DNA of 64,000 bases, from the NCBI GenBank assembly GCA_014729395.1, contig WJJZ01000006.1, positions 7,090 to 71,089 on the forward strand, given 5' to 3'. The notes under the pieces are model-generated. The model saw nothing but the letters and a program-made list of their open reading frames with translations. It had not been told where the DNA came from and did no database searches. The stretch's first letter is position 1, and each line of letters begins with the position of its first letter. The translations under genes and the position numbers were made by a program. The DNA is from Candidatus Magasanikiibacteriota bacterium. Lineage in GTDB: Bacteria > Patescibacteriota > Patescibacteriia > Magasanikbacterales > UBA922. Below are positions 1,643-43,765 of this stretch, in pieces.

Positions 1643-1700
1643 ATAATTATTGTAAAATTATAGTCCAATTATCGTCTAATTATAGCCTAATTTTAGTAAA
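1643..1700. repeat. Four to five phased 11-bp direct repeats (aattatagtcc / aattatcgtct / aattatagcct / aattttagtaa)
   Basis: Read directly in the convergent intergenic region. The period is 11 bp, about one helical turn. Confidence 0.4.
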
Positions 1701-1760
1701 ATTATTGAATAAGTTCCCTCACCCCATCACCTCGCTCGGGCTTCGGGACAAACAAAAAAA

Positions 1761-1834
1761 CACCATTTATCTGGTGTTCTTTTGAATAGGCCGCACTCAT
1801 GAAGCTGGTTTTACCCATACTTCATAAGTGCGGC
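1761..1834 (-). terminator. Two hairpins downstream of the minus-strand giant lipoprotein gene (14-bp stem GGCCGCACTCATGAAG/CTTCATAAGTGCGGC at 1789-1834; CACCA-loop-TGGTG at 1761-1776 flanked by A/T runs)
   Basis: Inverted repeats read directly. On the minus strand the second hairpin is followed by a T7 run. It probably acts as a bidirectional terminator. Confidence 0.5.
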
Positions 1835-1867
1835 AGGCTTCCTCCTTCAACCCAACTAGCCTACAGG

Positions 1868-16626: not shown

Positions 16627-16628
16627 TT

Positions 16629-17477: not shown

Positions 17478-17490
17478 AAAATTTTAGTAA

Positions 17491-18576: not shown

Positions 18577-18591
18577 GTTTATTAACTTATT

Positions 18592-19320: not shown

Positions 19321-19356
19321 TAGATTTGGGATTATATAGACAATATTTTAACATAT

Positions 19357-20232
19357 ATGCCAGTAAATAAATGCAATTTATTTTTTATAGTGGGCTCATA
19401 TCGATCCGGTACAACTTTATTGAGGAATATTTTGAATTTACATGAGGACGTGGCCGTGGTGCCGGAAATGCATTTTTTTGACAATTTGATTGCTAACAGA
19501 AAAAAATATGGTGATATTAAAAAAAGAAAAAATAAGGTTGAGCTTGTGGATAACATATTTTTTAAAATAAAGAATTTTAATATTAGCCGTGGTGATTATT
19601 GGGAGAATATCAATTTGGATCATAAGTTATTAAAAAGTAAAATGTTAGACTGTACTGATTTGCGTGAATTATTTTTTGTTTTAGCCAGTTCTTTGTCAAG
19701 CAAGAATTCTTTCTCTGTTTTGATTGAAAAGACTCCGTATAATGTGTTCTTTTTAGAACAAATTACTGAGTTGTTTCCTGAAGCAGGAATAATACACATA
19801 ATTAGAGATGGACGAGAGGTCTGTGCTTCGGCCTGTAAAAGATGGGGTCTTGATTATTTAGGCCCGGCCACCAGGTGGAAAGATTCTATTAAAAGTTATG
19901 AAAAATATAATAAAAAAAATAAAGATAAGAAGGAAAAATTTATAGAAATTAGATATGAAGATTTAGTAGATGAACCAAAAAATACTATAAATAAAATTTT
20001 TAAATTTATAAATTTGGGATTAAACGAAAGTTTTTTTGAAAGAATGTCTGATCTCCCGTCTACAAGTTCATTTACTAGATATAAAAAAAATTTTGGCCTG
20101 TATAAAAGTAATAATTTTAAAAAATTTTTTTCTGATTCAGAACAGGATATAATTAACTATTTACTATATGAAGAGCTTAAGAAAAAAAATATAAGACCCA
20201 AACAACCAAGATTTATTTTTTTAAAAAGATAA
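19357..20232 (+). CDS. Sulfotransferase family protein
   Basis: FFIVGSYRSGTTLL and IIRDGREV (3'-PB RDGR) motifs. Confidence 0.7.
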   Translation: MPVNKCNLFFIVGSYRSGTTLLRNILNLHEDVAVVPEMHFFDNLIANRKKYGDIKKRKNKVELVDNIFFKIKNFNISRGDYWENINLDHKLLKSKMLDCTDLRELFFVLASSLSSKNSFSVLIEKTPYNVFFLEQITELFPEAGIIHIIRDGREVCASACKRWGLDYLGPATRWKDSIKSYEKYNKKNKDKKEKFIEIRYEDLVDEPKNTINKIFKFINLGLNESFFERMSDLPSTSSFTRYKKNFGLYKSNNFKKFFSDSEQDIINYLLYEELKKKNIRPKQPRFIFLKR

Positions 20233-20340
20233 AATTAGAGTTTAGAAGATTGAAATCATTTATTTATATATACTTTCAGAGAATCGGTAGGTTTTATATT
20301 TATAAAAAAATTAGAAAAAAAATAAAAAAATTCTTTTAAC

Positions 20341-21213
20341 ATGAATAAGCCAAGATTACATTATATTGGGATCGGTGGGCAGAAATGCGCAACGAGTTGG
20401 CTATCAAAATGTATCTCTGAACACCCTGAATTAGATATTTTTCCGGGTAAGGAAATTCATTTTTTTAGTGAAACTAAAAAATACAATAAAGGCTTAGAAT
20501 TTTATACAAATTTTTTTAAAGACTGTGATTTCAGTAAGAAGGTGGGGGAGTTCAGTACGACTTATCTGAATTCTTTTAAAGCTGCTGATCGGATTAAGGA
20601 GTATTACCCGGATATTAAAATTATTGTTTCCATCAGAAATCCGATCGATCGAGCCGTCTCACATGTTAGGCATTTATTATCAACCGGAAAAATTAATTAT
20701 TTCCGTAATTGGGATGATCCGTTTTTGATAGAACAATCCCTTATCGAACGTGGATATTATGGAAAATATGTTGAATATTATATCAAACTGTTCGGTAGAG
20801 AGAATATATTGATTATTTTATTTGATGATATTTCGAATAAACCTGACAAAGTAGTTAAAGATATTTATACTTTTCTTGATGTTGATAATTCTTTTAAACC
20901 AAGCAGTATAGATAAAAAATATAATAGTAGTAATGCAAGATCTTTCTCAGCTTTTTGGTTATTAAACAATATATATTTAAAATATAGAAATAATTCATTA
21001 TTTAAAATATCAACATCAATATTTAAAAAAATGGGCATTAATTCAGTTTTGATTAATAATTTTTTTGATAAACTTGGCAAAGTTAAAATAGAAAAAATAA
21101 AATTCAAAAGAAGTGAGTTGATTGAAATATATAGAGATGATATAAAAAAAACGGAACGAATAACAAAGAGAGATTTATCGGATTGGTATACTTTTAATGA
21201 AAAAGAAATATAA
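20341..21213 (+). CDS. Sulfotransferase family protein (subfamily with an IGIG..KCATSW...HPE N-terminus)
   Basis: YIGIGGQKCATSWLSKCISEHPEL and SIRNPIDRAVSH motifs. Confidence 0.7.
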   Translation: MNKPRLHYIGIGGQKCATSWLSKCISEHPELDIFPGKEIHFFSETKKYNKGLEFYTNFFKDCDFSKKVGEFSTTYLNSFKAADRIKEYYPDIKIIVSIRNPIDRAVSHVRHLLSTGKINYFRNWDDPFLIEQSLIERGYYGKYVEYYIKLFGRENILIILFDDISNKPDKVVKDIYTFLDVDNSFKPSSIDKKYNSSNARSFSAFWLLNNIYLKYRNNSLFKISTSIFKKMGINSVLINNFFDKLGKVKIEKIKFKRSELIEIYRDDIKKTERITKRDLSDWYTFNEKEI

Positions 21214-28136: not shown

Positions 28137-28967
28137 ATGAATATAGTTTTTATACTTGGGAGTGGACATTGTGGTTCAACATTGCTTGACCTTATTTTGG
28201 ATTGTCATTCTAAAATAATCGGGGTTGGTGAATTTGAAAATGTAGGTAAGGAGAAACTGTGTAGTTGTGGCAGGGATTTTGAGGAGTGCGAGCTTTGGAA
28301 AAATATTTTAAAGCATAGGGATTTGTCGAAATTGAAGATATTTAGAACTAAAAAAGATTTTTTGTTAAACAAAAATAATTTTTATTACTATAAAAAAGAG
28401 ATGCGGTCGGTTGATTTAAATTCCTATATTACTGAGAATGAAAATATGTTTGATCAGGTTTTGGGTTTTTTTGACCAAAAGAAGGATTTTATAGTTGATT
28501 CTTCAAAGAACGTTGATAGATTTGAGCTACTTTTTAAAAGTAATTATATTAGACCGATTATTTTACATGTTGTCCGTGATGGTCGGGCTGTAACCTGGTC
28601 ATATTTTAAAAAGTACAAGAAAGCTATGCCTTATATGTGGAAATGGTTTGCACAAAATTTTAAAATTTATTATCTAAAAAAAAGAAACAAAGCGGATTAT
28701 GTTTTTGTACGTTATGAAAACTTAGCTAAAAATCCTAAAAAAGAAATTGAACGTATACTTAATAGCTTAGGTTTGGTTTATGAAGAGAATATGTTAAATT
28801 TTAGAAATTTTACTCATCATCAGGCTGGTGGTAATAGAATGCGTTTGTCCGGCACTAATGAGATAAAAGAAGATGTAAGTTGGAAAAAGAATTTACCTAT
28901 GAAATATCGACTGTTATTCAATATTTTGTTTGGCTGGTTAAATTTTTATTATGCAAGAAAAAGGTAA
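28137..28967 (+). CDS. Sulfotransferase family protein
   Basis: VFILGSGHCGSTLL and VVRDGRAVTWS motifs. Confidence 0.65.
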   Translation: MNIVFILGSGHCGSTLLDLILDCHSKIIGVGEFENVGKEKLCSCGRDFEECELWKNILKHRDLSKLKIFRTKKDFLLNKNNFYYYKKEMRSVDLNSYITENENMFDQVLGFFDQKKDFIVDSSKNVDRFELLFKSNYIRPIILHVVRDGRAVTWSYFKKYKKAMPYMWKWFAQNFKIYYLKKRNKADYVFVRYENLAKNPKKEIERILNSLGLVYEENMLNFRNFTHHQAGGNRMRLSGTNEIKEDVSWKKNLPMKYRLLFNILFGWLNFYYARKR

Positions 28968-29850
28968 TAAATTTAAAATTAATTTTATTGGCGTGGGGAC
29001 ACCAAGAAGCGGTACTACATGGATATCCAAATGTTTATCTGAACACTCGCAAATTTGTTTCTCAAAGGAAAAAGAAACTCATTTTTTTGATAAAGATTAT
29101 AATTTTGACAAGGGTCTGGAATACTACCGGTCTTTTTTTGAAAATAAAGAGAAGCAAGAGGGTGTGATTCTGGGTGAATTTACACCGAGCTATTATCGTG
29201 ATGAGAAGTGCGCAAAAAGAATTAAAACATTTTTTCCTGATGTAAAAATTATATTATGTTTGAGAAATCCCGTTGATAGAGCTCTGTCTGATTATCGTTA
29301 CAATAAAAAGAGAGGTGCTAAGCTGGGTCAAAATTTACTTGAAGAGCCTGAATTAAACTTGGATGAAAGAGTGGTGTCAGACGGTTTTTTTTATAATCAT
29401 TTAGAAAAGTTTTTAATTCCTTTTAATTTCAATAATATTCATATTATCCTGCATAAAGATATTAAAAAACACCCGGATAAAGTTCTTAGAAAGCTTTATG
29501 ATTTTTTGGGGGTGAATAATGATTTTATTCCGTCCTCGCTACATCAGAGGGTCAACACCACCGAAGGCACCAATTATCGTTACCCGGCGATAAATAGAAT
29601 TATTAATTATAGAAAAAAATTGAAAAACGATGCTGTAGGTCGATTTATATTAAATATTTTTAAATTACTTGGCATTGGTTATTTGTCAAAAAAGTTAATT
29701 CAAGCCAATAAGACATCCAAACAAAAAAATATTTTTTCTGAAGAGGAAATTAACAATTTTAAAATAAAATTATTTGATGTTTACTTAAAGGATATTAATA
29801 AATTGGAAGACTTGATAAAAAAAGATCTTAGTATATGGAAACAGATTTAG
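28951..29850 (+). CDS. Sulfotransferase family protein (IGVG..RSGTTW...HSQI subfamily)
   Basis: FIGVGTPRSGTTWISKCLSEHSQI and LCLRNPVDRALSDY motifs. Confidence 0.7.
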   Translation: MQEKGNKFKINFIGVGTPRSGTTWISKCLSEHSQICFSKEKETHFFDKDYNFDKGLEYYRSFFENKEKQEGVILGEFTPSYYRDEKCAKRIKTFFPDVKIILCLRNPVDRALSDYRYNKKRGAKLGQNLLEEPELNLDERVVSDGFFYNHLEKFLIPFNFNNIHIILHKDIKKHPDKVLRKLYDFLGVNNDFIPSSLHQRVNTTEGTNYRYPAINRIINYRKKLKNDAVGRFILNIFKLLGIGYLSKKLIQANKTSKQKNIFSEEEINNFKIKLFDVYLKDINKLEDLIKKDLSIWKQI

Positions 29851-33429: not shown

Positions 33430-34298
33430 GCCCTAAAGTATCAGTTATCATTCCGACTTATAATCGACCTGAATTTATTGACAAAGCCATAAAGTCAGTT
33501 TTAAATCAAACTTATCAGGATTTTGAAGTTATTGTTGTTGATGATGGTACAAGGGTTAGGGCTGAAGATGTGGTTAAGAAAATAAAAGACAATAGAGTGG
33601 TGTATATAAAACATCCGGAAAATAGGGGTGGAGGAGCCGCCAGAAACACAGGGATAAAAAAATCCAGGGGAGAATATGTTGCCTTTCTGGATGACGATGA
33701 TGAGTGGTTGCCGGAAAAATTGGAGATACAAATGAAGGAATTTGAAAAGGCGGGTGATGACGTGGGTTTTTGTTTTTCTAGTGTGATCAATAAAACAAAA
33801 GAAGGAGACAAAACCAAAGAAGTCTACGATGGGATAAAAAATTTCCACGAGGATGTCTTACGTAATTTTAAAGGGTTTTTAACTGTCACTCTAATAATAA
33901 AAAGAAAAGTTTTTGATGAGGTGGGTGGTTTTGATGAAAGATTTCCAAGCCATCAAGAACCGGATTTGATTATTAGAGTAACAAAAAAATATAGGGGTTT
34001 GGGTGTAAATAAGCCATTGGTAAAAGTGAATATGATGGGGGACCATGATCATATTGGAGCCAACTTAGATAAAAGAATTGCGGGACGCAGGATGATATTG
34101 AATAAATATTTGGGTGAATTTAAAAAAAAGCCAAGATTTTTGGCAAAGCATTATTTTCAGTTGGCTATTTTTTTAAGAGACGATGGAGAAATTGAAGAGG
34201 CGAGTGAGTTTTTTAAAAAAGCGTGGAAAACAAATTTTCATTGGCGGTATTTTGCTCATTATGTTGTTATGAAAATAAAAACCATTTATATATATTAA
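33426..34298 (+). CDS. GT2-family glycosyltransferase
   Basis: VSVIIPTYNRPEFI, VIVVDDG and FLDDDDEW (DxD) motifs. Confidence 0.75.
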   Translation: MSPKVSVIIPTYNRPEFIDKAIKSVLNQTYQDFEVIVVDDGTRVRAEDVVKKIKDNRVVYIKHPENRGGGAARNTGIKKSRGEYVAFLDDDDEWLPEKLEIQMKEFEKAGDDVGFCFSSVINKTKEGDKTKEVYDGIKNFHEDVLRNFKGFLTVTLIIKRKVFDEVGGFDERFPSHQEPDLIIRVTKKYRGLGVNKPLVKVNMMGDHDHIGANLDKRIAGRRMILNKYLGEFKKKPRFLAKHYFQLAIFLRDDGEIEEASEFFKKAWKTNFHWRYFAHYVVMKIKTIYIY

Positions 34299-35233
34299 TT
34301 ATCCCAATTTAGCTTGCGGTTAAGAAATTTTTCTAATTTTTTATTTTCTTCTCTATATATATCGTTTATAATTTTGCGATATTTAGGTGATAATTGAGGT
34401 CTTTTTTGTAGAGATGTTATTGAGTGTACTGACCTGTCGCAAAATTTTAGTGTATTAAGGGCTAAGTTATTTACTGTATTATTTTTAATAATCGGCATTA
34501 CTCTTTTTTTTATAGAGGATTGCATAAGGTTGTTTTTAATTTTTTGGTAAGTTTTTAGTGTTTTATTATTTTTTTTCCAGGTAGGGTTTGGCACATAATT
34601 TAAAAGCGATGGTGTAAAATTTTTATCCACATCCAAAAAAATATAAATTCTTTTAATAAATTTTTCGGGGTTTACCTTTAGGTCGTCGTGTAATAATAAA
34701 AGAATTTTATCTTTATCAAAAAAATTTAGGTAATTATTTATATGTTTCATATAAAATCCCGTGGATATAATTTCATCATTATTTAAAAAATGATCGAACG
34801 AGAAGAATTTTTTTTCATATTTTTTTTCATAGTTTCCTTTAGCATGTAGATAGTGAGAGTAAAGGCGATCTGTAGGATTCCTTAGGATTGCTATTATTTT
34901 CGTTTCAGGAAAATGTTTTTTGATTAATTTTGGTGTGTCTTTGTCAAATAAGTAATAAACACTGAATTCACCTATTATATTTCCCGGCTTACAATGCCTG
35001 AAATTTTTTTTGTATTCATCAATCCCTTTTGTGTATTTCCACTCTTCATCTTTTCTATAAAAAGGCCTGAATTTGTTAAAAAAATCCAATTCTTTATTGT
35101 TTGAAAGACATATTTGTGGGTGCTCCCTTAGGCATTTTGCCGTCCAACTGGTACCGCATTTGGGAGCACCAACTCCTATGAAATCTATTTTAAAATCATC
35201 TTGATTCATTTTTTTAGCATTTTTTTTGGCCAT
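34295..35233 (-). CDS. Sulfotransferase family protein (IGVG..KCGTSW...HPQI subfamily)
   Basis: FIGVGAPKCGTSWTAKCLREHPQI and AILRNPTDRLYSHY motifs. Confidence 0.7.
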   Translation of the reverse strand: MAKKNAKKMNQDDFKIDFIGVGAPKCGTSWTAKCLREHPQICLSNNKELDFFNKFRPFYRKDEEWKYTKGIDEYKKNFRHCKPGNIIGEFSVYYLFDKDTPKLIKKHFPETKIIAILRNPTDRLYSHYLHAKGNYEKKYEKKFFSFDHFLNNDEIISTGFYMKHINNYLNFFDKDKILLLLHDDLKVNPEKFIKRIYIFLDVDKNFTPSLLNYVPNPTWKKNNKTLKTYQKIKNNLMQSSIKKRVMPIIKNNTVNNLALNTLKFCDRSVHSITSLQKRPQLSPKYRKIINDIYREENKKLEKFLNRKLNWDN

Positions 35234-35572: not shown

Positions 35573-36823
35573 TTACATTCTTTTAAAAAGATATAATTTA
35601 AATAAAGTAAGTAATATATTTGTTATGATAATGGAAATTATAGCACCCCATATTCCAAAAAATACTATCATAGGGAGAAGTAATATAATTTTTAATACTG
35701 CCCCAAAAATTCTCATATAATATAACTGCTTTTTAAGACCTTGTGAAGTAAAGGTAGTACCAATAAGTATATAGGGTGTCAGTAGTACCGAAATAGCAAA
35801 AACTTGGGAATATTTAACAGAATCTAAATATTGAGGGAATAATATCTTAAAAATAAGAGGTGAGAAGAGAATGTATAAGATAGTGGGAATTATAAGCAGT
35901 AAGGTCATTTTAACTATTTTAGAAGGTAAGGTTTTTTTGATAATATTTTTATCTTTCGAGGCCATTTTAGGCATTGCCAAAGTTGAGATGGCATTAAAAA
36001 ATGACTTCATTTCTTTTATTGGGACGGTAGCAAATGAATATATGGCCAATTGAGCCGCACCCAAAAAATGCCACATTATAATTTTGTCTATGTTGTTGGT
36101 AATCGTTCCAAAAAAATCTATGATTGTTAAATGTTTTCCGAAAGATATAGTGTCAGCTGCTCTTTTTTTGTTTAATTTAAATTTTTTATAAATGTAGATT
36201 GAAAAAAAAGTTTGTATGATTAGTGAGGAAAGGTAAAAAACCGTTATTAAATAGGTCACTTTAGGATAAAATATTAGCGTTATGATAATTAAAATAGCAG
36301 AGCTTACCTGTATTATGGTGCTGTATATGGCACTTTGCTTAAACAATTTTCTTCCCTTGAGAAATGAACCATGAACAATCAAGCCGTTTGTGGTTGGTGC
36401 AAGAGTACCGGCAATTAAAAAACAAAATCCAAGTATAGAATTTCCATTGTGAAAGTAGTAAGCGGAAATAATAAGTCCGGCCAATGAACCCAGGAGTGAC
36501 CACTTAAATTTTTTTTTAATTATCCGCATGGTGTCGTTTTCGTAGCCACGGGCTACGGATCTCGTAAGGGCCGTGTTTAAACCTGGTAAAGCCGTTAAAC
36601 TAAGAATACCGGCGATGGATAGTACGTATTTATATAAACCATAATCCGTTTTTGATAATAGATTGGCATATGCTATGGCTAAAATAAGAGAGCCAACAGA
36701 AGTTATGATTTTGTTTAAACTTAACCATAAGCCACCCTTAGCAATATAAATCATGTCAGTGTGTGTGTATTTCTGACTCCAGATAAGCAGATTTTTTACC
36801 TTGTATTTTAATTTTTTATACAC
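35573..36823 (-). CDS. Wzx-type oligosaccharide/polysaccharide flippase (MOP superfamily)
   Basis: 416 aa with ~12 TM helices, a GTG start, and the typical Wzx hydropathy pattern inside a glycan locus. Confidence 0.6.
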   Translation of the reverse strand: MYKKLKYKVKNLLIWSQKYTHTDMIYIAKGGLWLSLNKIITSVGSLILAIAYANLLSKTDYGLYKYVLSIAGILSLTALPGLNTALTRSVARGYENDTMRIIKKKFKWSLLGSLAGLIISAYYFHNGNSILGFCFLIAGTLAPTTNGLIVHGSFLKGRKLFKQSAIYSTIIQVSSAILIIITLIFYPKVTYLITVFYLSSLIIQTFFSIYIYKKFKLNKKRAADTISFGKHLTIIDFFGTITNNIDKIIMWHFLGAAQLAIYSFATVPIKEMKSFFNAISTLAMPKMASKDKNIIKKTLPSKIVKMTLLLIIPTILYILFSPLIFKILFPQYLDSVKYSQVFAISVLLTPYILIGTTFTSQGLKKQLYYMRIFGAVLKIILLLPMIVFFGIWGAIISIIITNILLTLFKLYLFKRM

Positions 36824-36878: not shown

Positions 36879-37826
36879 CTATTCGCTCCACTCTAATTTA
36901 CGATTTAAGAATATTTCTAATTCTTTATTTTTGTCCTGGTAAGTTTGATTTAATTCTTTGATTATTTCTTTTGGGACTCCTTTTTTTTCTTTGTTATGTG
37001 TATATTTTTTGATTAGTTTATCAGTTGGATCAAAAACTATTTTTAAAATAAGTTTATTGAGTTTTAGTGGTTTAAGAAAAAACATTATATTTTTTTTAAT
37101 TTTACTAGACATTATTTTGTTTTTCCAATTTATATAATTGGATCTCAATAAACTAGTTTTTGGCCCGGTTACATTCACTCTTTTATTTAAGCTTTCTGGC
37201 ACAAAATTATCATCTACATTTAGAAAATTGTAAATTGATTTAATGAATTTTTGAGGATCTCGTTTGATATCTTCGTAGATTAAAATTAAAAGTTGTTCTT
37301 TGGAAAAATATCGCAAGTATCTCTTGATATGGTCTATATAGAAGCCGGTTTCGATAAAGTCAGTCTTTTCTTTTATAATTTTTTTGATATCTGGTAGTTT
37401 TCTTTTGCGTTTTCCATCAAATTTACCTTGGAAATAACTAGAGATTAGACGCTCGGTAGGATTCCGAACAATAAAGATTAACTTAATATTAGGAAAATGT
37501 TCCTTAATTAGGGCAGGGGTCTTTGGATCATGATGGTAATGTGTACTGAATTCTCCCTTTATACTAGCTATACTGCAATGCTTGAATTGATCTAAGTACC
37601 AGCTGATTCCTTTTAGGTATTGCCAATCTTTTCTTTCATGGTAAAAATTAGCTTTTTTATTATAAAAATGTAATTCTTTATTTTTGGGAAAGCAGATTTG
37701 TGGATGTTGGGATAGACATTTAGCTACCCAGGTGGTAGCGCATTTTTGGGCCCCGATCCCAATGAAATCTACTTTAAATTGTTTTTTTTGTTTGGAATTT
37801 AGATTTTTTAATATCAGCTCATTCAT
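36879..37826 (-). CDS. Sulfotransferase family protein (IGIG..KCATTW...HPQI subfamily)
   Basis: FIGIGAQKCATTWVAKCLSQHPQI and FIVRNPTERLISSY motifs. Confidence 0.7.
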   Translation of the reverse strand: MNELILKNLNSKQKKQFKVDFIGIGAQKCATTWVAKCLSQHPQICFPKNKELHFYNKKANFYHERKDWQYLKGISWYLDQFKHCSIASIKGEFSTHYHHDPKTPALIKEHFPNIKLIFIVRNPTERLISSYFQGKFDGKRKRKLPDIKKIIKEKTDFIETGFYIDHIKRYLRYFSKEQLLILIYEDIKRDPQKFIKSIYNFLNVDDNFVPESLNKRVNVTGPKTSLLRSNYINWKNKIMSSKIKKNIMFFLKPLKLNKLILKIVFDPTDKLIKKYTHNKEKKGVPKEIIKELNQTYQDKNKELEIFLNRKLEWSE

Positions 37827-37926
37827 AAAGATGTTTTGTTTTTTTTGTTTAGTCTGTTAACATACACACTACCTTAACATTGGATTAGATTTAGCTTATC
37901 ATAATTATTTATAACTGAAAAGATTT

Positions 37927-38733
37927 ATGAAAGATGCATTATATGATGAAATTTTAACTGATTTAAAGCAAATTACCAGCCAAGCCGGAGCAAAAATCTT
38001 AGAATTTTATGCTGAAGATTACACTGATTCTGAAAAAAAAGAATTCCCGGTCACCAAAGCCGACTTGGCTTCAGATAGTATAATTTCGCAAGGATTGGAA
38101 AAGTATCTTGAAAATGGTTTTGGTATTCTTTCCGAAGAGACCTCGGCTGACAAAGATTACTTGAATCATGACAAGGTTTTTATTGTTGATCCGATTGACG
38201 GCACCAAAGATTTTGTTCATAAGACCGGTGATTTTTCTATAATGATTGCTTATGTTGAAAATGGGGAGCCGGTGGTCGGGGTAGTATTTAAGCCACTGGG
38301 AGGGGTTTTATACTATGCACAAAAAAATGAAGGTGCTTTTGTGGAAGTTGGCGGTAATTCAGAAAAAATAGAAGTTTCTCCGCAAGAGGATTTTACAGAG
38401 ATGAGATTACTTGTTAGCCGGTATCACTTGAGAGATCCGGAAATAAAATTGAAAGAAGAGTTATATTTAGCCGATAATTTGGCTATGGGCAGTGCCGGAC
38501 TCAAATTATGTTCAATCGCGGCGGGCAAGGCTCATATTTATGTTAATACCAGTGATAAAACCGGGGAATGGGATACGGCTGCCGGTAGTATTATTCTACA
38601 AGAAGCCGGAGGAATTATAACTGATTTAGATGCTAAACCACTTGATTTTTTGAAGGAAAAGCCCTATAATACTCGCGGTTTTGTGGCCTCAAACGGCACC
38701 CAACACGAACAGATTTTAAATAAATTAAAATAA
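37927..38733 (+). CDS. cysQ: 3'(2'),5'-bisphosphate nucleotidase (PAP phosphatase, inositol-monophosphatase fold)
   Basis: IVDPIDGTKDF and WDTAAGSIILQEAGG motifs match the CysQ signatures. Confidence 0.75.
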   Translation: MKDALYDEILTDLKQITSQAGAKILEFYAEDYTDSEKKEFPVTKADLASDSIISQGLEKYLENGFGILSEETSADKDYLNHDKVFIVDPIDGTKDFVHKTGDFSIMIAYVENGEPVVGVVFKPLGGVLYYAQKNEGAFVEVGGNSEKIEVSPQEDFTEMRLLVSRYHLRDPEIKLKEELYLADNLAMGSAGLKLCSIAAGKAHIYVNTSDKTGEWDTAAGSIILQEAGGIITDLDAKPLDFLKEKPYNTRGFVASNGTQHEQILNKLK

Positions 38734-38743
38734 ATTTTAAATT

Positions 38744-39280
38744 ATGGAAAATAATGGGAAAAAGGGAATAGTATTGTGGTTCACGGGTCTGTCAGGAGCG
38801 GGAAAAACCACTGTAGCTGATGAGATTTTTAATCGTTTACAAGAATTAAATTTAAGGTGTGAACGCCTGGATGGTGATGTGATAAGAAGTAATTTGAATG
38901 AGGATTTGGATTTCTCCAAAGAGGGAAGGGATAGAAACGTCAGGATCGCCGGTTTTGTGGCCAAAATGTTGGCCGAACATGGGGTAGTTGTCTTATCAAG
39001 TTTTATTTCACCATATAAAGAACAAAGAGATAAATTAAGAGAAAAAATTGATTGCTTTGCAGAAGTGTTTGTTAATGCTCCTCTTGAGGTTTGTGAACAA
39101 AGAGATGTAAAAGGGTTGTATAAGAAAGCTCGTAGCGGTGAAATAAAAAATTTTACCGGCATCGATGACCCTTATGAGGCGCCGGATAATCCGGAAATAG
39201 TTTTAAATACCCATGAAGAAGAGATAGAAGAAAGTGTCAATAGAATCGTTTCATATTTAAAATCAAAAGAATTAATATAA
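38744..39280 (+). CDS. cysC: Adenylyl-sulfate (APS) kinase
   Basis: GIVLWFTGLSGAGKTT P-loop, the typical 178-aa length and strong overall APS-kinase similarity. Confidence 0.9.
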   Translation: MENNGKKGIVLWFTGLSGAGKTTVADEIFNRLQELNLRCERLDGDVIRSNLNEDLDFSKEGRDRNVRIAGFVAKMLAEHGVVVLSSFISPYKEQRDKLREKIDCFAEVFVNAPLEVCEQRDVKGLYKKARSGEIKNFTGIDDPYEAPDNPEIVLNTHEEEIEESVNRIVSYLKSKELI

Positions 39281-39283
39281 TTT

Positions 39284-39913
39284 ATGAATTTAGAAGAAAA
39301 AATGGAGCTTTCCCGTATTGTTATTCAACATGCATTAAGCAATTATGAAAAAATTTTTACCAGTTGTTCTTTTGGCAAAGATTCTTTAGTGGTGGCAGAC
39401 TTGGCTCAGGGCATAAAAAAAGATATTCAGTTTATTGGGATTGATACCGGTTATGAATTTGAAGAAACTTTGGAATACGCAGATAGGGTAATTAAACAAA
39501 GAGAGATGAATTTTTTTTGGGCCAAGCCAAGCATGGAAGATGTTGAAAGAATAGATAAGGAATATGGTGATTCTTTTTTAAAAAATGGCCAGTATAAATG
39601 TTGTGAAATGAAGCTGCCGGCAATTGAAAAACATTTATCAAGTTATGATGCTTGGATTACCGGGATTAGGCGTGACGAAACGGAAAGTCGTAAAACCACA
39701 AAAATTTTTGATCAAGGAAAAATTGTCAGAGTCAGTCCGATAGCTTTCTGGACAGAAGCCGATGTTTGGGGTTATATTAAAGACCGAGGGTTGGAATACC
39801 ACCCCTTGTATGATCAGGGATACAAGTCTTTGGGCTGCAAACCATGCACTACAGAGGGTACAGAAAAAAGTGGTGGCGGTAGACAGGGTCAATTTGAAAG
39901 AGCTGGGCAGTAG
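39284..39913 (+). CDS. cysH: Phosphoadenosine-phosphosulfate/adenylyl-sulfate reductase (thioredoxin-dependent, Fe-S type with CC...CxxC)
   Basis: SFGKDS, GIDTGYEFEET, GIRRDE..SR and HPLYDQGY.SLGC.PCT motifs align with CysH. The CC...CxxC pair indicates an APS-reductase-type Fe-S cluster. Confidence 0.75.
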   Translation: MNLEEKMELSRIVIQHALSNYEKIFTSCSFGKDSLVVADLAQGIKKDIQFIGIDTGYEFEETLEYADRVIKQREMNFFWAKPSMEDVERIDKEYGDSFLKNGQYKCCEMKLPAIEKHLSSYDAWITGIRRDETESRKTTKIFDQGKIVRVSPIAFWTEADVWGYIKDRGLEYHPLYDQGYKSLGCKPCTTEGTEKSGGGRQGQFERAGQ

Positions 39914-39970
39914 CATGTAAGATTGGGGCCTGTATATCCTTCACAGCTATTTATTTGCTGATAAAGCAAT

Positions 39971-40060
39971 GTCATTCCCGCGAAAGCGGGAATCCAGGAA
40001 AGAAGTTCGTTGTGATAGGCTGGATTCCCGCTTTCGCGGGAATGACACGGTTGATTTTTT
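39971..40060. repeat. Compound palindrome made of two 26-nt arms, each itself a hairpin (cccgcGAAAgcggg / cccgcTTTCgcggg), separated by 24 nt and followed by a T-run. Probably a terminator or REP-like element.
   Basis: Perfect inverted repeat read directly. GC-rich against the AT-rich background. Confidence 0.6.
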
Positions 40061-40112: not shown

Positions 40113-41501
40113 ATGAACATCTTATACATCGGAGGAGGTTTTGTCGGGACATGTTCGGCCGCGGTGTCCGCTGATAGTGGCCACAATGTTTTGGTCTATG
40201 ATATTGATGAAAAGAAAATTGATAAGCTAGGTTCATACCAAAAAGACAGGATTGAATCTTGTATGTTTGAGGAAGGCCTTTATGATTTGTTGTCCAGAAA
40301 TAAAGAAAGAATTAAATTTACTTCGGATTATTCCAAAGTAAAGAATTTTCTCGATAAAGCACATGTTGTTTTTATGTGTTTACCAACGCCGGAGATCGGC
40401 GAGACGGGTGAGAGCGATTTAAGTTTTTATTTTGACGCAGCGGAAAAATTGGCAAATACATTAATTAAAAGGCAAGACGGAAAGCAAGATAATTATATTG
40501 TAATTGTAAATAAAAGCACGGTACCGATTGATATGGTTGGCAAGACAAAAGAAATAATGACCCAAGCCGGAGTAAAAAAATTTGGCGTTGTTTCAAACCC
40601 TGAATTTTTGGTTGAGGGTAAAGCGGTTCATGGTTCTGTGAGGCCTGACAGGGTTGTTATTGGTGGAGAGACTGAAAAGGATTTTGAAATAATGCGCAAA
40701 CTTTATGATCGTTTTTACAGTTCTTCCGGTGTAAAATATATTGAGGTTGGGGCAGGAGAAGCGGAAGCGGGTAAGTTACTTTCAAATTATTTATTATTCA
40801 ATAAATTGACTCAGTGTTTTGATGTGGTGGGTCGTACCTGTGAAACTTTTCCGGATTTGAAATTTGAGAACGTCAGAAAAATATTGATTACAGACCCTAG
40901 AATTGGTAATTGGGGTCTATATGATAGTTTGTATGCCGGTGGAAGTTGTTTTATAAAAGACTCCAGATCTTTATCCTATCAATTACAGACGGCAGGCAAA
41001 AATGCCACACTGGTAAATGAGTCTTATTTGGCAAATAAGCGCCAATTGGAATTATTTATAGGTCGTGCAGAGAGAGAATTGGATTATAATTGGGAGGGTA
41101 AAAAGGTGGCCTTACTAGGCTTGGCTTTCAAGCAAGACACGAATGATATTAGGAATGCCCCGAGTATAAATATAGTTAATTTTTTACTTGAGAATAGAGT
41201 GGAAGAAATAAAATGTTATGATCCGGTAGCCAATGGCGATTTTAAAAGATTGTTTGAACAGAGTAAAGAAGTTAAGTATTTTGAAACTGCTCTTGAGGCT
41301 TTACAGGACACAGATGCTGTCATCATAGCTACAGATTGGCCTCAATTTAGGGGTTTATATGACAGTTTGGTCGGACTTTATCGCGGTAAAAAAGGTTTAA
41401 TTATGGACGGTAGACGGATGCTCCAACATAAATATAATGATCTCTCTAGAGAAGGTTTTGATATTATAGCGGTCGGCTCTCCTTTACTTAAAGCTAAATA
41501 A
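40113..41501 (+). CDS. ugd: UDP-glucose 6-dehydrogenase family nucleotide-sugar dehydrogenase
   Basis: N-terminal GGGFVG NAD fold and a catalytic GGSCF.KD motif. Confidence 0.7.
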   Translation: MNILYIGGGFVGTCSAAVSADSGHNVLVYDIDEKKIDKLGSYQKDRIESCMFEEGLYDLLSRNKERIKFTSDYSKVKNFLDKAHVVFMCLPTPEIGETGESDLSFYFDAAEKLANTLIKRQDGKQDNYIVIVNKSTVPIDMVGKTKEIMTQAGVKKFGVVSNPEFLVEGKAVHGSVRPDRVVIGGETEKDFEIMRKLYDRFYSSSGVKYIEVGAGEAEAGKLLSNYLLFNKLTQCFDVVGRTCETFPDLKFENVRKILITDPRIGNWGLYDSLYAGGSCFIKDSRSLSYQLQTAGKNATLVNESYLANKRQLELFIGRAERELDYNWEGKKVALLGLAFKQDTNDIRNAPSINIVNFLLENRVEEIKCYDPVANGDFKRLFEQSKEVKYFETALEALQDTDAVIIATDWPQFRGLYDSLVGLYRGKKGLIMDGRRMLQHKYNDLSREGFDIIAVGSPLLKAK

Positions 41502-41504
41502 AAT

Positions 41505-42809
41505 ATGATATTACTTGAAGAACTAAAAACAAAAAAAGAAAAAATTTGTATCGTGGGGCTCGGCTATGTAGGTTTGCCGCTTGCAGTTTTGTTGTCAAAG
41601 AATTTTAATGTTATAGGTTTTGATATAAATGAAGAAAAAATAAATAATTTGAAAAATGGATTAGATAAAACAAACGAAGTTGAAAATCAAGAATTATTAT
41701 CATCCAATGTTGAATTTACAAGTTCACCGGATCGTATAAAAGAAGCAAAATTTATTATAGTGGCTGTACCAACGCCGATTGATAGAAATAAAATTCCCGA
41801 TTTAAGTATTTTAAAAAAGGCAAGTGAATTGGTTGGAAAAAATTTATCCCCCGGTAGTATAATTGTCTATGAATCAACCGTATATCCCGGAGTTACAGAA
41901 GATATATGTGCACCAATTTTAGAGAAATATTCCAATTTAAAAAAAGGAGTTGAATTTAATATTGGTTACTCACCAGAGAGGGTTAACCCGGGAGATAAGA
42001 AGCATACGATTGATAAAATAACAAAGGTTGTTTCAGCCGGTGATCAGCAGTCTCTCGAGGTTGTGGCGGGAATATATGAGAGTATAACATCAGTATTTAA
42101 AGCTAAGTCAATCGCGGTGGCCGAGGCTGCAAAAGTAATCGAAAATACGCAGAGAGATTTAAATATAGCACTTATTAATGAGTTAACAATTCTTTTTAAT
42201 AAGATGGATATTAGTATTTATGATGTTTTAGATGCTGCCGGAACCAAGTGGAATTTTTTAGGATTCAAGCCCGGGTTGGTCGGTGGACATTGTATTGGGG
42301 TGGATCCATATTATCTCACCTTCAAAGCAAGGGAAGTTGAGCATAATCCTGAGGTTATCTTGGCAGGTAGGGGTATAAATGATTCAATGCATAAATATAT
42401 TGCTCACCAAATCATAAAAAAAATGATATTACTTGGTAAAGATGTGAGTACCTCCAAGTTTGTTATTTTTGGATTGACATTTAAAGAAGATGTAAGTGAC
42501 GTAAGAAATTCAAAAGTAGCCGCACTCTATGAAGAATTGAGACAATTTGGAGTCAAACCGATAGTTTATGATCCTTTGGCTGATCCCAAGGATGTGGAAG
42601 AGGAATATGGTATTATATTAACAAAAAAAGAGGACCTGCCCAAAGCTGATACTCTAATAGTGGCTGTTACTCATGATGAATTTAGAAAAATGACTCCTCA
42701 GGAAATAAAAGAATACATGAATGATCATAATTTACTCTTGGTTGATTTTAAAAAAATTTATGATCAAGGGGAAATAGAAAAAGAGGGTATCAATTATTGG
42801 ACACTATAG
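41505..42809 (+). CDS. UDP-N-acetyl-hexosamine 6-dehydrogenase (WbpA/TviB/WecC-like)
   Basis: GLGYVGLPLA NAD fold and a GGHCIGVDPYYL catalytic motif typical of the UDP-GlcNAc/ManNAc dehydrogenase branch. Confidence 0.7.
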   Translation: MILLEELKTKKEKICIVGLGYVGLPLAVLLSKNFNVIGFDINEEKINNLKNGLDKTNEVENQELLSSNVEFTSSPDRIKEAKFIIVAVPTPIDRNKIPDLSILKKASELVGKNLSPGSIIVYESTVYPGVTEDICAPILEKYSNLKKGVEFNIGYSPERVNPGDKKHTIDKITKVVSAGDQQSLEVVAGIYESITSVFKAKSIAVAEAAKVIENTQRDLNIALINELTILFNKMDISIYDVLDAAGTKWNFLGFKPGLVGGHCIGVDPYYLTFKAREVEHNPEVILAGRGINDSMHKYIAHQIIKKMILLGKDVSTSKFVIFGLTFKEDVSDVRNSKVAALYEELRQFGVKPIVYDPLADPKDVEEEYGIILTKKEDLPKADTLIVAVTHDEFRKMTPQEIKEYMNDHNLLLVDFKKIYDQGEIEKEGINYWTL

Positions 42810-42847
42810 TTTTCAAAAAAAATAATCTACCATAATTTAAAATATTT

Positions 42848-43765
42848 ATGTCACATTATCTAGTAACAGGAGGTGCCGGTTTTATTGGCACAAACTTGGT
42901 AAAAAAATTACTTTCAGACGGTCACAAAGTGCGCGTTATTGATAATTATGCCGGTGGTAAAAAAGAAGAGAGAATTCAGCCCGGTGCGGAATATATTGAG
43001 GGTGATATAAGAGATGAGGCTGATTTGGAAAAAGCTTGTTCCGGAGGCATTGATGGCATTTTTCATTTAGCTGCTCTGCCGAGGGTAACTTATTCTGTGG
43101 AAAAACCATGGGAAACGCATGACGTGAACGTAAACGGTACTTTAAAATTGTTACTGGCTGCCAAAGAGCACGGCATAAAAAGATTGGTGTTTTCATCTTC
43201 TTCGTCCACTTATGGAGCTGAAGAAAAAGAATTGTTGTCTGAAGACGACAAAATAAAAAAACCAATCAGTCCTTATGCTCTGCATAAATTGATAGGTGAG
43301 CATTACTGCCGGTTGTTTTCAGAGTTGTATGATTTACAAACAGTAAGTCTAATATATTTTAATGTTTACGGCCCTTATTTTGATCCGGATGGAGCTTATG
43401 CCCTTGTAATTGGAAAATTTTTAAAACAAATCAAAGAAGGAAAGCCAATGACCGTCTGTGGGGATGGGGAATATTATCGTGATTATACACATGTTGATGA
43501 TGTGGTAAAAGCCAATATTCTGGCTATGACGAATGACAATGTGGGAAAGGGTGAGACTATAAATATTGGTAACGGCAAGCCAACCACTGTTAATGAATTG
43601 GTTAGTATAATCGGCGGTCCTCATGAATTTATTCCACCTAGACCCGGTGACCCACGTTTTTCCGGGGCTGATAATACCAAAGCAAAAAAACTCCTTGGTT
43701 GGGAGCCGACAATAAAGCTTGAAGATGGAATAGCGGAATTGAAGAAGGAGATGGGTTTAGAATAA
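42848..43765 (+). CDS. NAD-dependent nucleotide-sugar epimerase/dehydratase (WbpP/TviC-like 4-epimerase candidate)
   Basis: [12 protein letters not shown], a YxxxK (SPYALHK) catalytic motif and 305 aa. Confidence 0.65.
   Translation: MSHYLVTGGAGFIGTNLVKKLLSDGHKVRVIDNYAGGKKEERIQPGAEYIEGDIRDEADLEKACSGGIDGIFHLAALPRVTYSVEKPWETHDVNVNGTLKLLLAAKEHGIKRLVFSSSSSTYGAEEKELLSEDDKIKKPISPYALHKLIGEHYCRLFSELYDLQTVSLIYFNVYGPYFDPDGAYALVIGKFLKQIKEGKPMTVCGDGEYYRDYTHVDDVVKANILAMTNDNVGKGETINIGNGKPTTVNELVSIIGGPHEFIPPRPGDPRFSGADNTKAKKLLGWEPTIKLEDGIAELKKEMGLE

Follow-up and report, generated by a model that had tools for sequence, protein, structure and literature searches.

A possible PAPS module for surface-glycan sulfation in Candidatus Magasanikiibacteriota, with an APS reductase homolog that lacks the catalytic cysteine

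The window, that is, the whole 64,000-nt stretch that was analysed, comes from contig WJJZ01000006.1 of Candidatus Magasanikiibacteriota (GCA_014729395.1), and all positions are given in window numbering (Table 1). This Candidatus Magasanikbacteria glycan locus holds a tight trio of genes, cysQ-like, cysC and a PAPS_reduct (CysH-like) gene, together with 7-8 sulfotransferase ORFs. The three ORFs lie on the forward strand at the positions that the original prediction had given them, with intergenic gaps of 10 bp (cysQ-like/cysC) and 3 bp (cysC/cysH-like), so that they probably form a single transcription unit. The divergent intergenic region in front of cysQ is the likely promoter region of this unit and contains a sigma-70-like sequence on the forward strand (37874-37902), which is a match to consensus only. 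Beyond the cysH-like gene lies a perfect inverted repeat, each arm of which has its own CCCGC-GAAA-GCGGG hairpin, and a T-run then follows. The repeat occurs once in the window, where chance would give 0 matches; a simple terminator scan did not flag it, and it is possibly a terminator or a repeat element at the end of the unit.

Table 1. Features of the glycan locus around the cysQ-cysC-cysH-like module
Feature	Position	Strand	Details
Sulfotransferase-domain block	16614..21213	+	16614-17477, 18592-19320 (weak), 19357-20232, 20341-21213; GT4 gene interleaved
Two sulfotransferase-domain ORFs	28137..29850	+	28137-28967 and 28951-29850
Sulfotransferase	34295..35233	-	PF00685 74.5 bits; motifs KCGTSW, RNPTDRLYS
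Wzx-type polysaccharide flippase	35573..36823	-	PF01943 75 bits; syntenic in L001, L002, L109
Sulfotransferase	36879..37826	-	PF00685 77 bits, PF13469 64 bits; divergent from cysQ
Divergent intergenic region, 100 bp	37827..37926		Between sulfotransferase gene (-) and cysQ (+)
cysQ-like 3'(2'),5'-bisphosphate nucleotidase, Inositol_P family, 268 aa	37927..38733	+	PF00459 182 bits
cysC, APS kinase, 178 aa, MBD3311265.1	38744..39280	+	PF01583 208 bits
cysH-like, Fe-S APS-reductase-like, 209 aa, MBD3311266.1	39284..39913	+	PF01507 149 bits; NF002537 157.5 vs cutoff 154
Inverted repeat, perfect 28-nt arms, 22-nt spacer	39970..40047		Inside 199-bp spacer after the cysH-like gene
NDP-sugar dehydrogenase	40113-41501	+	Always directly 3' of the cysH-like gene in the tail-less clade
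TviB-like UDP-GlcNAc 6-dehydrogenase	41505-42809	+	Sugar-nucleotide gene, downstream of the cysH-like gene
TviC/GalE-like epimerase	42848-43765	+	Sugar-nucleotide gene, downstream of the cysH-like gene

Sulfotransferase-domain ORFs flank the module (36879-37826 and 34295-35233, both on the reverse strand and 39% identical to each other), and 5-6 others lie upstream, giving a Sulfotransfer_1/_3 total of 7-8. The translation of the ORF divergent from cysQ contains KCATTW (5'-PSB) and RNPTERLIS (3'-PB), which, with KCGTSW and RNPTDRLYS in the second ORF, we take to be PAPS-binding motifs. The three genes at 40113..43765 would supply the uronic-acid sugar substrates of the glycan. Glycan genes surround the module in conserved order in five genomes, with the flippase and sulfotransferase upstream and the NDP-sugar dehydrogenase downstream.

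The cysC product scores above two curated cutoffs (NF002059, 253.6 vs 244; TIGR00455, 237.6 vs 138.7) and its translation contains the Walker A loop GLSGAGKTT. For the cysQ-like product the best NCBIfam model is CysQ (TIGR01331, 192 bits, below the equivalog cutoff of 228.8), and HisN, IMPase and the other Inositol_P subfamily models all score below it. L001, L002 and L109 have the gene in the same syntenic place, and the CysQ assignment, under which the product would clear PAP, is supported by its association with cysC in four genomes. The original prediction had seen in this pair of genes a fit to sulfation, with PAPS supply by one and PAP removal by the other, and the analysis supports such a module beside PAPS-type sulfotransferases.

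The third gene of the module is more unusual. Its product is named phosphoadenylyl-sulfate reductase by PGAP, and the CC...CxxC motif noted in the original prediction is real, consisting of C106, C107, C185 and C188. These putative [4Fe-4S] ligands of the APS-reductase subclass are invariant in family members with the C-terminal ECGLH tail (tailed) and without it (tail-less). The protein also keeps S-F-G-K-D-S (S29-S34), DTG, K110 and RRDE alongside the CC and CxxC pairs. The ORF ends in FERAGQ, followed by TAG at 39911-39913, within the lid motif that positions the substrate, R(S/E/A)GR(W/F) as defined in PMC8173546, and so the protein lacks both the mobile C-terminal lid and the catalytic cysteine of ECGLH. 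What is left of the lid motif is R-A-G, with Q at position 4 and the W/F absent. No remnant of ECGLH was found downstream of the stop in any frame, and no ECGLH-like motif elsewhere in the window or in the syntenic loci. The core is complete in the AF2 model (pLDDT 88.5), for which the top Foldseek matches are 6VPU, 2GOY, 4BWV, 1SUR and 7LHR (TM 0.72-0.81), the nearest fold being that of the APS reductase 2GOY (TM 0.81). The lid motifs are required for catalysis and not for binding (PMC8173546), and a Cys249Ser APS reductase binds APS, forms no intermediate and is inactive (PMC1175818). Judged from its sequence, the truncated protein cannot be a reductase by the established mechanism, because the catalytic cysteine is missing. 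It had been described as a reductive (P)APS consumer, a description that must be dropped on the Cys249Ser precedent (PMC1175818), and as an odd partner for cysC and cysQ, which it is.

Loss of ECGLH was seen in 11 of 120 relatives, eight of which form a single NJ clade (61-80% identity) with the truncation common to all. Seven of the eight clade members are linked to cysC, which lies directly upstream of the cysH-like gene in the window, L001, L002, L109 and L110; P0004 and P0026 are likewise tied to CysC proteins, in their case through contigs of identical length. There is no space for a tail in L109, L110 and L001, since the 3' neighbour begins 7, 19 and 29 bp past the stop, respectively. 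Between genome pairs, pS of the cysH-like gene is 0.72-0.93 (saturated) and pN is 0.11-0.27, no higher than that of cysC and cysQ in the same pairs, which indicates equally strong purifying selection. No clade member departs from the Fe-S cysteines, SFGKDS, DTG, K110 or RRDE. Only the two lid arginines are relaxed, to R/K/Q and Q/R/N/K/S, where 106 of 109 tailed members have R, and Arg35 is replaced by Leu or Ile. Two further proteins, P0013 and P0088, are independent truncations at the same site with no adjoining cysC. Strong purifying selection and strict cysC linkage together point to a retained, non-reductive role, and the non-canonical role that the original prediction offered as one option is directly backed by the missing cysteine, by the conserved, cysC-linked tail-less clade and by the selection on it.

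The tailed Patescibacteria CysH proteins resemble the window's protein in sequence (58-67% identity), in the SFGKDS loop, GGGRQG insert and Fe-S motif, and in their place in surface-glycan loci. They differ in that RFxGT...ECGLH and Arg35 are kept, and in that the next gene is an SQD1 ortholog (UDP-sulfoquinovose synthase; 475 bits against 1QRR, 457 bits with NF041015), a pairing found in L005-L010 and in about 30 further loci. None of the tailed genes lies beside cysC, cysQ, sat or sulfite reductase, and none in a cysteine-assimilation operon. Because they sit beside UDP-sulfoquinovose synthase, the tailed enzymes appear to make sulfite for a sulfo-sugar.

The source of APS was sought in the window and in related loci. 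In agreement with the original prediction, no Sat, CysD or CysN was found in the 64 kb by a Pfam scan of ORFs of at least 150 aa and small intergenic ORFs, by motif scans, or by tblastn with a Patescibacteria Sat and with CysD, in which the sole match to CysD in the window was the cysH-like gene itself; as a positive control, the same probes detected Sat in L112. Neither the window nor the syntenic loci have a GTP_EFTU/CysN ORF or G1 motif. The window has no sulfate permease, sulfite reductase or cysteine synthase, and in about 70 family loci no sulfite reductase, cysteine synthesis or cysDN/sat gene lies within 10 kb on either side. Sat was not found in the window, at the locus of any clade member or in 1.28 Mb of family loci. 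Patescibacteria do encode Sat, however, and in L112 (Parcubacteria) the gene order is sulfotransferase-sat-cysC. Since other Patescibacteria carry sat-cysC, 64 kb without sat says little by itself, and APS is most probably made by a conventional Sat whose gene, we infer, lies outside the window. The nearest other CysC lineage is linked to sat where that of the tail-less clade is linked to the cysH-like gene, a swap beside cysC that resembles gene displacement.

Our preferred reading, to which we give a probability of about 0.5, is that the three genes are a surface-glycan sulfonucleotide module and not part of cysteine biosynthesis, that the CysH-like protein is a lid-less, binding-only former reductase, and that Sat is encoded elsewhere. 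CysC would convert APS to PAPS, with which the 7-8 PAPS-type sulfotransferases would O-sulfate the glycan, and the CysQ-like phosphatase would clear the inhibitory by-product PAP. The CysH-like protein would descend from a Patescibacteria-specific [4Fe-4S] APS reductase family, intact members of which, adjoining UDP-sulfoquinovose synthase, would supply sulfite for the sulfo-sugar; in the window's lineage the mobile lid at the C terminus would have been deleted together with its ECGLH nucleophile. The remaining protein is predicted to fold, to hold its cluster and to have an open active site that still binds APS, PAPS, AMP or PAP. It would form no S-sulfocysteine intermediate, and therefore could not divert activated sulfate to sulfite against the sulfotransferases. 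Where CysH is active, it and the sulfotransferases compete for PAPS, and sulfation in E. coli needed the removal of CysH (PMC7925653). We infer that the protein serves the PAPS module as a lid-less sulfonucleotide-binding partner, for example in APS/PAPS hand-over, buffering or sensing.

Several observations sit uneasily with this preferred reading. An Fe-S protein that only binds has, to our knowledge, no established specific biochemical role. If it bound APS tightly, it should hinder CysC and not help it, and the invariant, CysD-type S-x-G-K-D-S loop, which is lost in characterised reductases, would be left unused. In addition, Sat is seen in no clade locus, P0013 and P0088 are truncated without cysC, and the cysC linkage looks like gene displacement.

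The module can be compared with several known systems. Two assimilatory [4Fe-4S] APS reductases, 2GOY from P. aeruginosa and 7LHR from M. tuberculosis, share with the window's protein the PAPS_reduct fold, the CC...CxxC and DTG motifs, the Arg loop, the Lys that follows CC and, in the R-x-G-R lid motif, the first Arg. The window's protein, in contrast, stops 16 residues earlier, is without ECG(L/I)H and the lid W/F, does not conserve the second lid Arg, and has S-F-G-K-D-S as its P-loop where 2GOY and 7LHR have F-S-G-A-E-D; its genomic partners are cysC, cysQ and sulfotransferases, whereas those of the 2GOY/7LHR type are sulfite reductase or cysDN. The behaviour predicted for it is that of the Cys249Ser mutant, in which the catalytic thiol is likewise gone and which binds APS without forming a thiosulfonate intermediate (PMC1175818). 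That mutant, however, retains the whole lid, while in the tail-less clade the lid was lost naturally and the loss has been kept by selection. PAPS modules for sulfated glycans or Nod factors, such as those of Cobetia marina (cysNC-cysD-cysQ-permease; PMC11766843) and L112, also have an APS kinase and a PAP phosphatase beside sulfotransferases in a polysaccharide locus, but the window's module has no recognisable ATP sulfurylase or sulfate permease and instead has a CysH homolog without its nucleophile. The locus also mirrors the engineering of E. coli for sulfated polysaccharides, in that CysH activity is gone and PAPS is free for the sulfotransferases; the E. coli delta-cysH strains are laboratory deletions of the whole gene, whereas here the nucleophile and lid alone are lost and the remainder is conserved (PMC7925653).

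The likeness of the truncated protein to CysD raises another explanation, in which it is a stand-alone, GTPase-independent, CysD-like ATP sulfurylase (ATP + sulfate -> APS + PPi) that feeds CysC, so that no Sat is needed; the same site in the tailed sisters might then make APS and reduce this sulfate-derived APS to sulfite. Both proteins belong to superfamily PF01507, and the S-F-G-K-D-S PP-loop and RRDE match CysD (1ZUN; L077 cysD, S-I-G-K-D-S and ARRDEE), whereas the loops of characterised reductases are degenerate (SFGIQA, FSGAED, SFSIED). CysD, FAD synthase and TtuA, which have the same fold, carry out adenylyl transfer with release of PPi, and CysD is the usual PF01507 member in the PAPS modules of sulfated capsules (PMC11766843). 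The cysH-like gene, moreover, occupies the position beside cysC that sat has in L112 and in the sister CysC lineage, and Sat, CysD and CysN are missing within about 10 kb in roughly 70 family loci. The CysD match is confined to the N-terminal half (NF003587, 76.3 bits vs cutoff 195, residues 12-142; TIGR02039, 62 vs 396.6; family profile against 1ZUN, 63.7 bits, positions 4-142), and the protein is closer to reductases, both in score (NF002537, 157 vs 76 bits) and in fold (TM 0.81 vs 0.66 for CysD). The tailed sisters (60-67% identity) retain ECGLH and are paired with SQD1, which makes the shared core a reductase core. The K-D-S loop occurs in tailed and tail-less forms alike and so does not single out the cysC-linked clade. 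The P-loop of solved APS reductases touches adenine and ribose and not pyrophosphate (PMC8173546). The conserved Fe-S cluster, which CysD does not have, is without a role in sulfurylase chemistry; CysN and the extra C-terminal domain, both needed by CysD, are missing here; the lid arginine that contacts the sulfate is no longer fixed in the clade; and Sat may simply be encoded elsewhere. We therefore regard a sulfurylase as unlikely.

It is also improbable, in our view, that the protein reduces sulfonucleotides, or transfers the sulfo group to thiols, with a nucleophile provided in trans (thioredoxin, a small thiol or a carrier cysteine), yielding sulfite or an S-sulfonate that would serve some sulfonation step of the glycan pathway. 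Historically, plant APS reductase was viewed as an APS sulfotransferase with thiols as acceptors. Strong selection has kept every substrate-binding and Fe-S residue, the modelled lid-less active site would admit an external thiol, and the ancestral job of the family is sulfite supply to the sugar-modifying SQD1. In characterised enzymes, however, thioredoxin or DTT cannot replace the C-terminal cysteine, and the Cys249Ser enzyme is inactive with thioredoxin (PMC1175818); the window and syntenic loci have no SQD1 or known sulfite-using enzyme, no thioredoxin gene adjoins the module, the two sulfate-positioning lid arginines are relaxed, and sulfite production would compete with the sulfotransferases of the locus (PMC7925653). 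The original prediction had also allowed that this might be an ordinary assimilatory cys cluster lying by chance beside the glycan locus, with sat/cysDN and sulfite reductase elsewhere. The PGAP name, an NF002537 cutoff exceeded by 3.5 bits and the occurrence of Sat in Patescibacteria speak for such a cluster, which we find very hard to reconcile with the missing catalytic cysteine and lid, with the absence of sulfite reductase, cysK, cysE and a sulfate transporter from the window and every family locus, and with synteny to glycan genes across five genomes; even the tailed relatives adjoin and serve SQD1, and not sulfite reductase, cysK or cysteine synthesis. Decay of an ancestral cysH-SQD1 pair into a pseudogene, or an assembly or annotation artefact, is similarly remote. 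C-terminal truncation is a classic first step of gene decay, and the P0013 and P0088 lineages were truncated independently without cysC linkage, but eight diverged clade members, each assembled independently, all end at the same point, with ORFs intact past synonymous saturation, pN no higher than in the neighbouring enzymes and invariant catalytic-core and Fe-S residues. The tight spacing, 3 bp behind cysC and, in relatives, 7-29 bp ahead of the following gene, also argues against decay.

Annotation pipelines, PGAP among them, call MBD3311266.1 a phosphoadenylyl-sulfate reductase, and metabolic reconstructions would therefore wrongly score assimilatory sulfate reduction in genomes of candidate phyla. 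A natural Fe-S APS reductase without its nucleophile, kept through deep divergence and tied to cysC and cysQ, offers a clean case of enzyme repurposing, with sulfonucleotide chaperone, sensor or even APS synthase as candidate functions. The last of these is doubtful; it would make the protein a novel single-subunit ATP sulfurylase, evolved from an Fe-S APS reductase, that has taken the place of Sat/CysDN and feeds CysC directly. If it were true, the cysH-like gene, cysC and cysQ would be a complete and previously unrecognised PAPS pathway, the tailed enzymes beside SQD1 might turn sulfate into sulfite in one active site, and many reduced genomes scored as lacking sulfate activation would possess it. 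The tail-less and tailed forms appear to mark, respectively, O-sulfation (through PAPS) and C-sulfonation (through sulfite and UDP-sulfoquinovose) of Patescibacteria surface glycans, two sulfur routes that bear on how these ultra-small episymbionts build a charged cell surface.

The three open reading frames that the original prediction read as cysQ, cysC and cysH are present at exactly the coordinates it gave; these are listed in the table together with the other features discussed here. In a family scan the best subfamily for the cysQ-like product was CysQ (TIGR01331, 192 bits), under that model's cutoff of 228.8, and the cysC product scored over all curated APS kinase cutoffs. The third product, which lacks the C-terminal lid and catalytic cysteine and is called CysH* here, barely cleared the NCBIfam CysH model NF002537 (157.5 against 154). 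It is 100% identical to MBD3311266.1 from a Candidatus Magasanikbacteria MAG (Patescibacteria/CPR), where it lies on a 107-kb contig. Because the gaps are only 10 bp (cysQ-cysC) and 3 bp (cysC-cysH*), the three genes are probably one unit, and a 100-bp divergent spacer parts them from a sulfotransferase gene on the opposite strand. In the inverted repeat listed in the table each arm has its own GAAA-looped hairpin, with a T-run after; the repeat could act as a terminator or belong to the REP-like elements, and a simple terminator scan made no call there.

Coordinates of the module and of other features in the window and in related loci
Feature	Sequence	Coordinates	Strand	Details
cysQ-like	window	37927-38733	+	268 aa; Inositol_P family 182 bits
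cysC, APS kinase	window	38744-39280	+	178 aa; PF01583 208 bits; NF002059 253.6 against a cutoff of 244
cysH*	window	39284-39913	+	209 aa; PAPS_reduct PF01507 149 bits
Inverted repeat	window	39970-40047		perfect 28-nt repeat TGTCATTCCCGCGAAAGCGGGAATCCAG; 22-nt spacer; unique in window
Surface-glycan locus	window	~6-51 kb		numerous GT4 and GT2 glycosyltransferases; Wzy-like polymerase, Wzx flippase, initiating sugar transferase; NDP-sugar dehydrogenases and epimerases, TviB-like and TviC-like among them; methyltransferases, radical-SAM proteins
Modification-gene region	window	16614-37826		7-8 sulfotransferase-domain ORFs, radical-SAM/SPASM protein, asparagine-synthase-like amidotransferase, several methyltransferases
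MopE-repeat ORF	window	1868-5059	-	1063 aa; at least 5 MopE-type putative metal-binding repeats (PF11617, 186 bits)
B12-binding domain ORF	window	12982-13899
Partial radical-SAM ORF	window	13842-14426		194 aa; C-terminal part of the domain only
sat	L112 (MNWH01000012.1, Parcubacteria)	1612-2682		full-length, 356 aa
Acetyl-CoA-synthetase-like adenylate-forming enzyme	L112	3238-5085		615 aa
Tail-less cysH, P0013	L003 (also L004, L040)	10001-10633		stops at FERAG-x
Tail-less cysH, P0088	L111	495-1124		stops at FERAG-x
CysH-SQD1 pair	L005	10001-11884		also L007, L009, L015-L019, L021, L023, L026-L032, L038-L052, others

Annotation of every ORF of at least 150 aa, and of small intergenic ORFs, identified a single large surface-glycan locus in which seven ORFs have a clear sulfotransferase domain and an eighth has a weak match. 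In translation, the two sulfotransferases adjacent to the module have the motifs KCATTW/KCGTSW and RNPTERLIS/RNPTDRLYS, which we take to bind the 5'-phosphosulfate and the 3'-phosphate, respectively; this implies PAPS, not APS, as the donor, and with it a need for CysC. The modification load of the region of the locus listed in the table is unusually heavy for a genome of this type. Outside the module, the MopE-repeat ORF lies in a 54% G+C stretch (against ~33% for the remaining window) and may represent foreign DNA or a repeat protein of biased composition. The overlapping B12-binding and partial radical-SAM ORFs have the appearance of a single B12-radical-SAM gene broken up by a frameshift or by an error in sequencing. 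The only Rfam matches in the window are two tRNAs, which have no bearing on the module.

In sulfonucleotide reductases, an S-sulfocysteine intermediate arises when the cysteine of the C-terminal ECG(L/I)H motif attacks the APS or PAPS sulfate. CysH* has the [4Fe-4S] ligands C106, C107, C185 and C188, and its chain stops at ...GGGRQGQFERAGQ-TAG, whereas all characterised sulfonucleotide reductases run on through R(S/E/A)GR(W/F) to ECG(L/I)H. This segment is a mobile lid that catalysis requires and nucleotide binding does not (PMC8173546), and a Cys249Ser enzyme keeps APS binding, forms no intermediate and is inactive (PMC1175818). The predicted role of CysH as a reductive (P)APS consumer is thus, without the catalytic cysteine, impossible by the established mechanism. 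Translation of all three frames past the cysH* stop gave no tail remnant, and no [EDQ]CG[LIVM]H motif was found elsewhere in any frame of the window or of the syntenic loci L001 (GCA_964433095.1), L002 (JGI 3300009105 bin), L109 and L110, so that a tail supplied by another ORF was rejected. In relatives the next gene starts 7-29 bp past the stop, a distance that excludes both readthrough and a split gene; recoding or frameshifting was rejected on the same spacing, on the missing remnant and on the differing stops (TAG in the window, TGA in L111). In L111 the cysH stop overlaps the ATG of the next gene. An AlphaFold2 model of CysH* (mean pLDDT 88.5) has a complete core over residues 1-190 with the last ~20 residues disordered, and the closest solved structure is the P. 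aeruginosa APS reductase 2GOY (TM 0.81). On this model the truncation takes away the flexible lid only, which may be why it has recurred.

We collected 120 homologs (49-100% identity), nearly all of them unnamed or from Patescibacteria. The tailed form, ~225 aa long and ending ...FERAGRFxGT...ECGLHxx, accounts for 109, and ECGLH is absent from the other 11; ten of these tail-less proteins end 1-2 residues past FERAG, and the remaining one, P0026, carries a short extension that is degenerate. A neighbour-joining tree of the core places eight tail-less sequences in one clade, whereas P0013 and P0088 branch within the tailed sequences. Their positions suggest that truncation arose independently at the same site, a reading that is provisional because the tree carries no support values. 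The P0013 and P0088 genes adjoin neither cysC nor SQD1, the UDP-sulfoquinovose synthase gene. In every clade member with readable context (the window, L001/L013, L002, L109 and L110), cysC is immediately upstream of the tail-less gene and the same NDP-sugar dehydrogenase gene immediately downstream, and cysQ is present wherever the contig extends that far. In a protein-database search the closest CysC homologs lie on contigs of the same bp size as those of the tail-less P0004 and P0026, which brings the cysC linkage to 7/8.

The tailed relatives occur in glycan loci with an abundance of genes for nonulosonic acids (NeuB, NeuC and CMP-sugar synthetases), and in ~35 of ~58 loci an ortholog of UDP-sulfoquinovose synthase is directly downstream of the tailed gene. 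This ortholog matches Arabidopsis SQD1 (1QRR) with 475 bits (E = 2e-141), and its sole NCBIfam match, NF041015, scores 457 bits, below the 575 cutoff. SQD1 requires sulfite, so the tailed enzyme appears to provide sulfite specifically for a sulfo-sugar and not for cysteine synthesis. No cysC, cysQ, sat or sulfite reductase gene was found within 10 kb of the tailed loci. An Acidobacteriota-like tailed subgroup and one Microgenomates member have no SQD1 nearby. An SQD1 in the window itself was rejected, as the sole match is a generic SDR at 21% identity. In L007 a TauE-family gene lies close to the CysH-SQD1 pair. The MAG taxonomy labels of the family-locus records look unreliable: L013 (CAYSPW010000014.1) and L028 (CAZSQN010000002.1) are labelled 'uncultured Gammaproteobacteria' yet are clearly syntenic with Patescibacteria loci, and further loci carry Saccharibacteria or Acidobacteriota labels.

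The prediction that the 64 kb holds no ATP sulfurylase was borne out by ORF annotation, motif scans and tblastn with a Patescibacteria Sat and with CysD, all of which were negative; the sole CysD-like match was the cysH-like gene itself. By annotation the window also has no CysD, CysN, sulfate permease, cysteine synthase or sulfite reductase, the last a check that the prediction had named, and its small ORFs include no HIT-type ADP-sulfurylase, only DUF2304, YtxH, HU and zinc-ribbon proteins. Sat was found in one family locus, the Parcubacteria L112, where an ORF between a sulfotransferase gene and cysC scores as Sat above curated cutoffs. The L112 Sat has RNIPH, outside the strict HxxH-type Sat regex, and we therefore used a GRDHAG regex and tblastn with this Sat, which were negative for the window and, across 1.28 Mb of family loci, for every locus but L112. 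The L112 gene is absent from the stored gene table, and cysC and then an adenylate-forming enzyme follow it. Among the closest 120 homologs of this Sat are several from Patescibacteria, along with numerous Sat-CysC fusions, so a conventional Sat does occur in Patescibacteria. The CysC lineage next to that of the clade in closeness (60-64% identity) shares contigs of 4395, 5654, 22282, 102900 and 195919 bp with Sat, whereas CysC proteins from the clade itself lie on contigs with CysH* and not with Sat; in both cases contigs were equated by bp size across match tables, a proxy that cannot prove absence of Sat. The parsimonious reading is that sat is encoded elsewhere in the genome, as must hold for the tailed reductases too, and the pattern also matches the expected look of non-orthologous displacement of sat by cysH*. 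The tailed CysH P0022 and the Sat-CysC fusion P0299 agree in the size of the longest contig (3775 bp) and in source type, and may be neighbours, which would place a tailed CysH beside a complete sulfate-activation gene.

That CysH* is itself the APS-forming enzyme is unlikely. In alignments with PDB sequences, all family members show an S-F-G-K-D-S loop without variation, together with an RRDE motif; both resemble CysD (S-I-G-K-D-S and ARRDEE in P. syringae 1ZUN and in the cysD product of locus L077) and leave room for ATP handling, and the fold relatives CysD, FAD synthase and TtuA transfer AMP from ATP. Characterised reductases, in contrast, have degenerate loops (S-F-G-I-Q-A in E. coli, F-S-G-A-E-D in P. 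aeruginosa), as does the canonical cysH product beside cysD in L077 (S-F-S-I-E-D). However, the loop is common to tailed and tail-less forms, P-loop residues in the M. tuberculosis structure touch adenine and ribose (PMC8173546), and reductase models score CysH* far higher than CysD models do. S-G-G-K-D-S is retained in PF01507 proteins that are more remote and lack ECGLH. We also consider it improbable that CysH* remains active as a reductase or thiol sulfo-transferase by using a nucleophile provided in trans. Membership of an ordinary assimilatory cluster is very improbable for a module embedded in glycan genes, in a window with no sulfite reductase or cysteine synthase.

There is likewise very little chance that cysH*, for all its missing tail, is a pseudogene or artefact. 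Among five clade members (the window, L001, L002, L109 and L110) synonymous sites are saturated (pS 0.72-0.93), so that dN/dS proper is not computable and pN and pS are given instead; pN is 0.11-0.27, no higher than in cysC and cysQ when the same pairs of genomes are compared. Invariant features are the Fe-S ligands, the P-loop, DTG, the lysine that follows CC and the RRDE loop, and this, with the low pN, rejects a decaying pseudogene. Only three positions are relaxed or changed: the first lid arginine (R/K/Q among clade members), the second lid arginine (Q/R/N/K/S; 106 of 109 tailed sequences have R at both) and Arg35, directly after the P-loop (Leu/Ile in 8/8 clade members, Arg in 89% of tailed sequences). 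Judged from these sequences, CysH* is maintained, with residues that would aim sulfate at the lost cysteine freed of constraint.

It is highly probable that the operon is a PAPS supply and PAP clearance module for glycan O-sulfation and that CysH* is an ex-reductase, whose loss of lid and nucleophile removes a sulfite branch in potential competition with the sulfotransferases; intracellular polysaccharide sulfation in E. coli required removal of cysH (PMC7925653). These two parts rest on observed features. The full reading, to which we give a probability of about 0.5, adds by inference that CysH* would persist as a lid-less Fe-S protein that binds sulfonucleotides and partners CysC and CysQ, while Sat is encoded elsewhere. 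The capsule-linked PAPS module of Cobetia (cysNC-cysD-cysQ-permease; PMC11766843) and the sulfotransferase-sat-cysC arrangement of L112 are similar, but the module in the window has no recognisable sulfurylase.

CysH* shares the fold and Fe-S subclass of sulfonucleotide reductases but lacks their defining ECGLH nucleophile and complete lid motif, and so should not be filed as a CysH reductase; of the CysD features examined it shows only the PP-loop. The PGAP name of MBD3311266.1, 'phosphoadenylyl-sulfate reductase', is an annotation over-call, given a CysH model passed by just 3.5 bits and no catalytic motif, and it will spread into metabolic reconstructions. In the open-access literature we found no earlier description of a tail-less CysH, of the CysH-SQD1 pairing or of sulfoquinovose in Patescibacteria, or of cysH in sulfation clusters. 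The tailed loci suggest that CPR bacteria have sulfoquinovose-containing surface glycans with a dedicated sulfite supply. CysH* is a clear case of enzyme repurposing that can be tested; it matters concretely for annotation and has a modest chance of leading to an APS route that is new.
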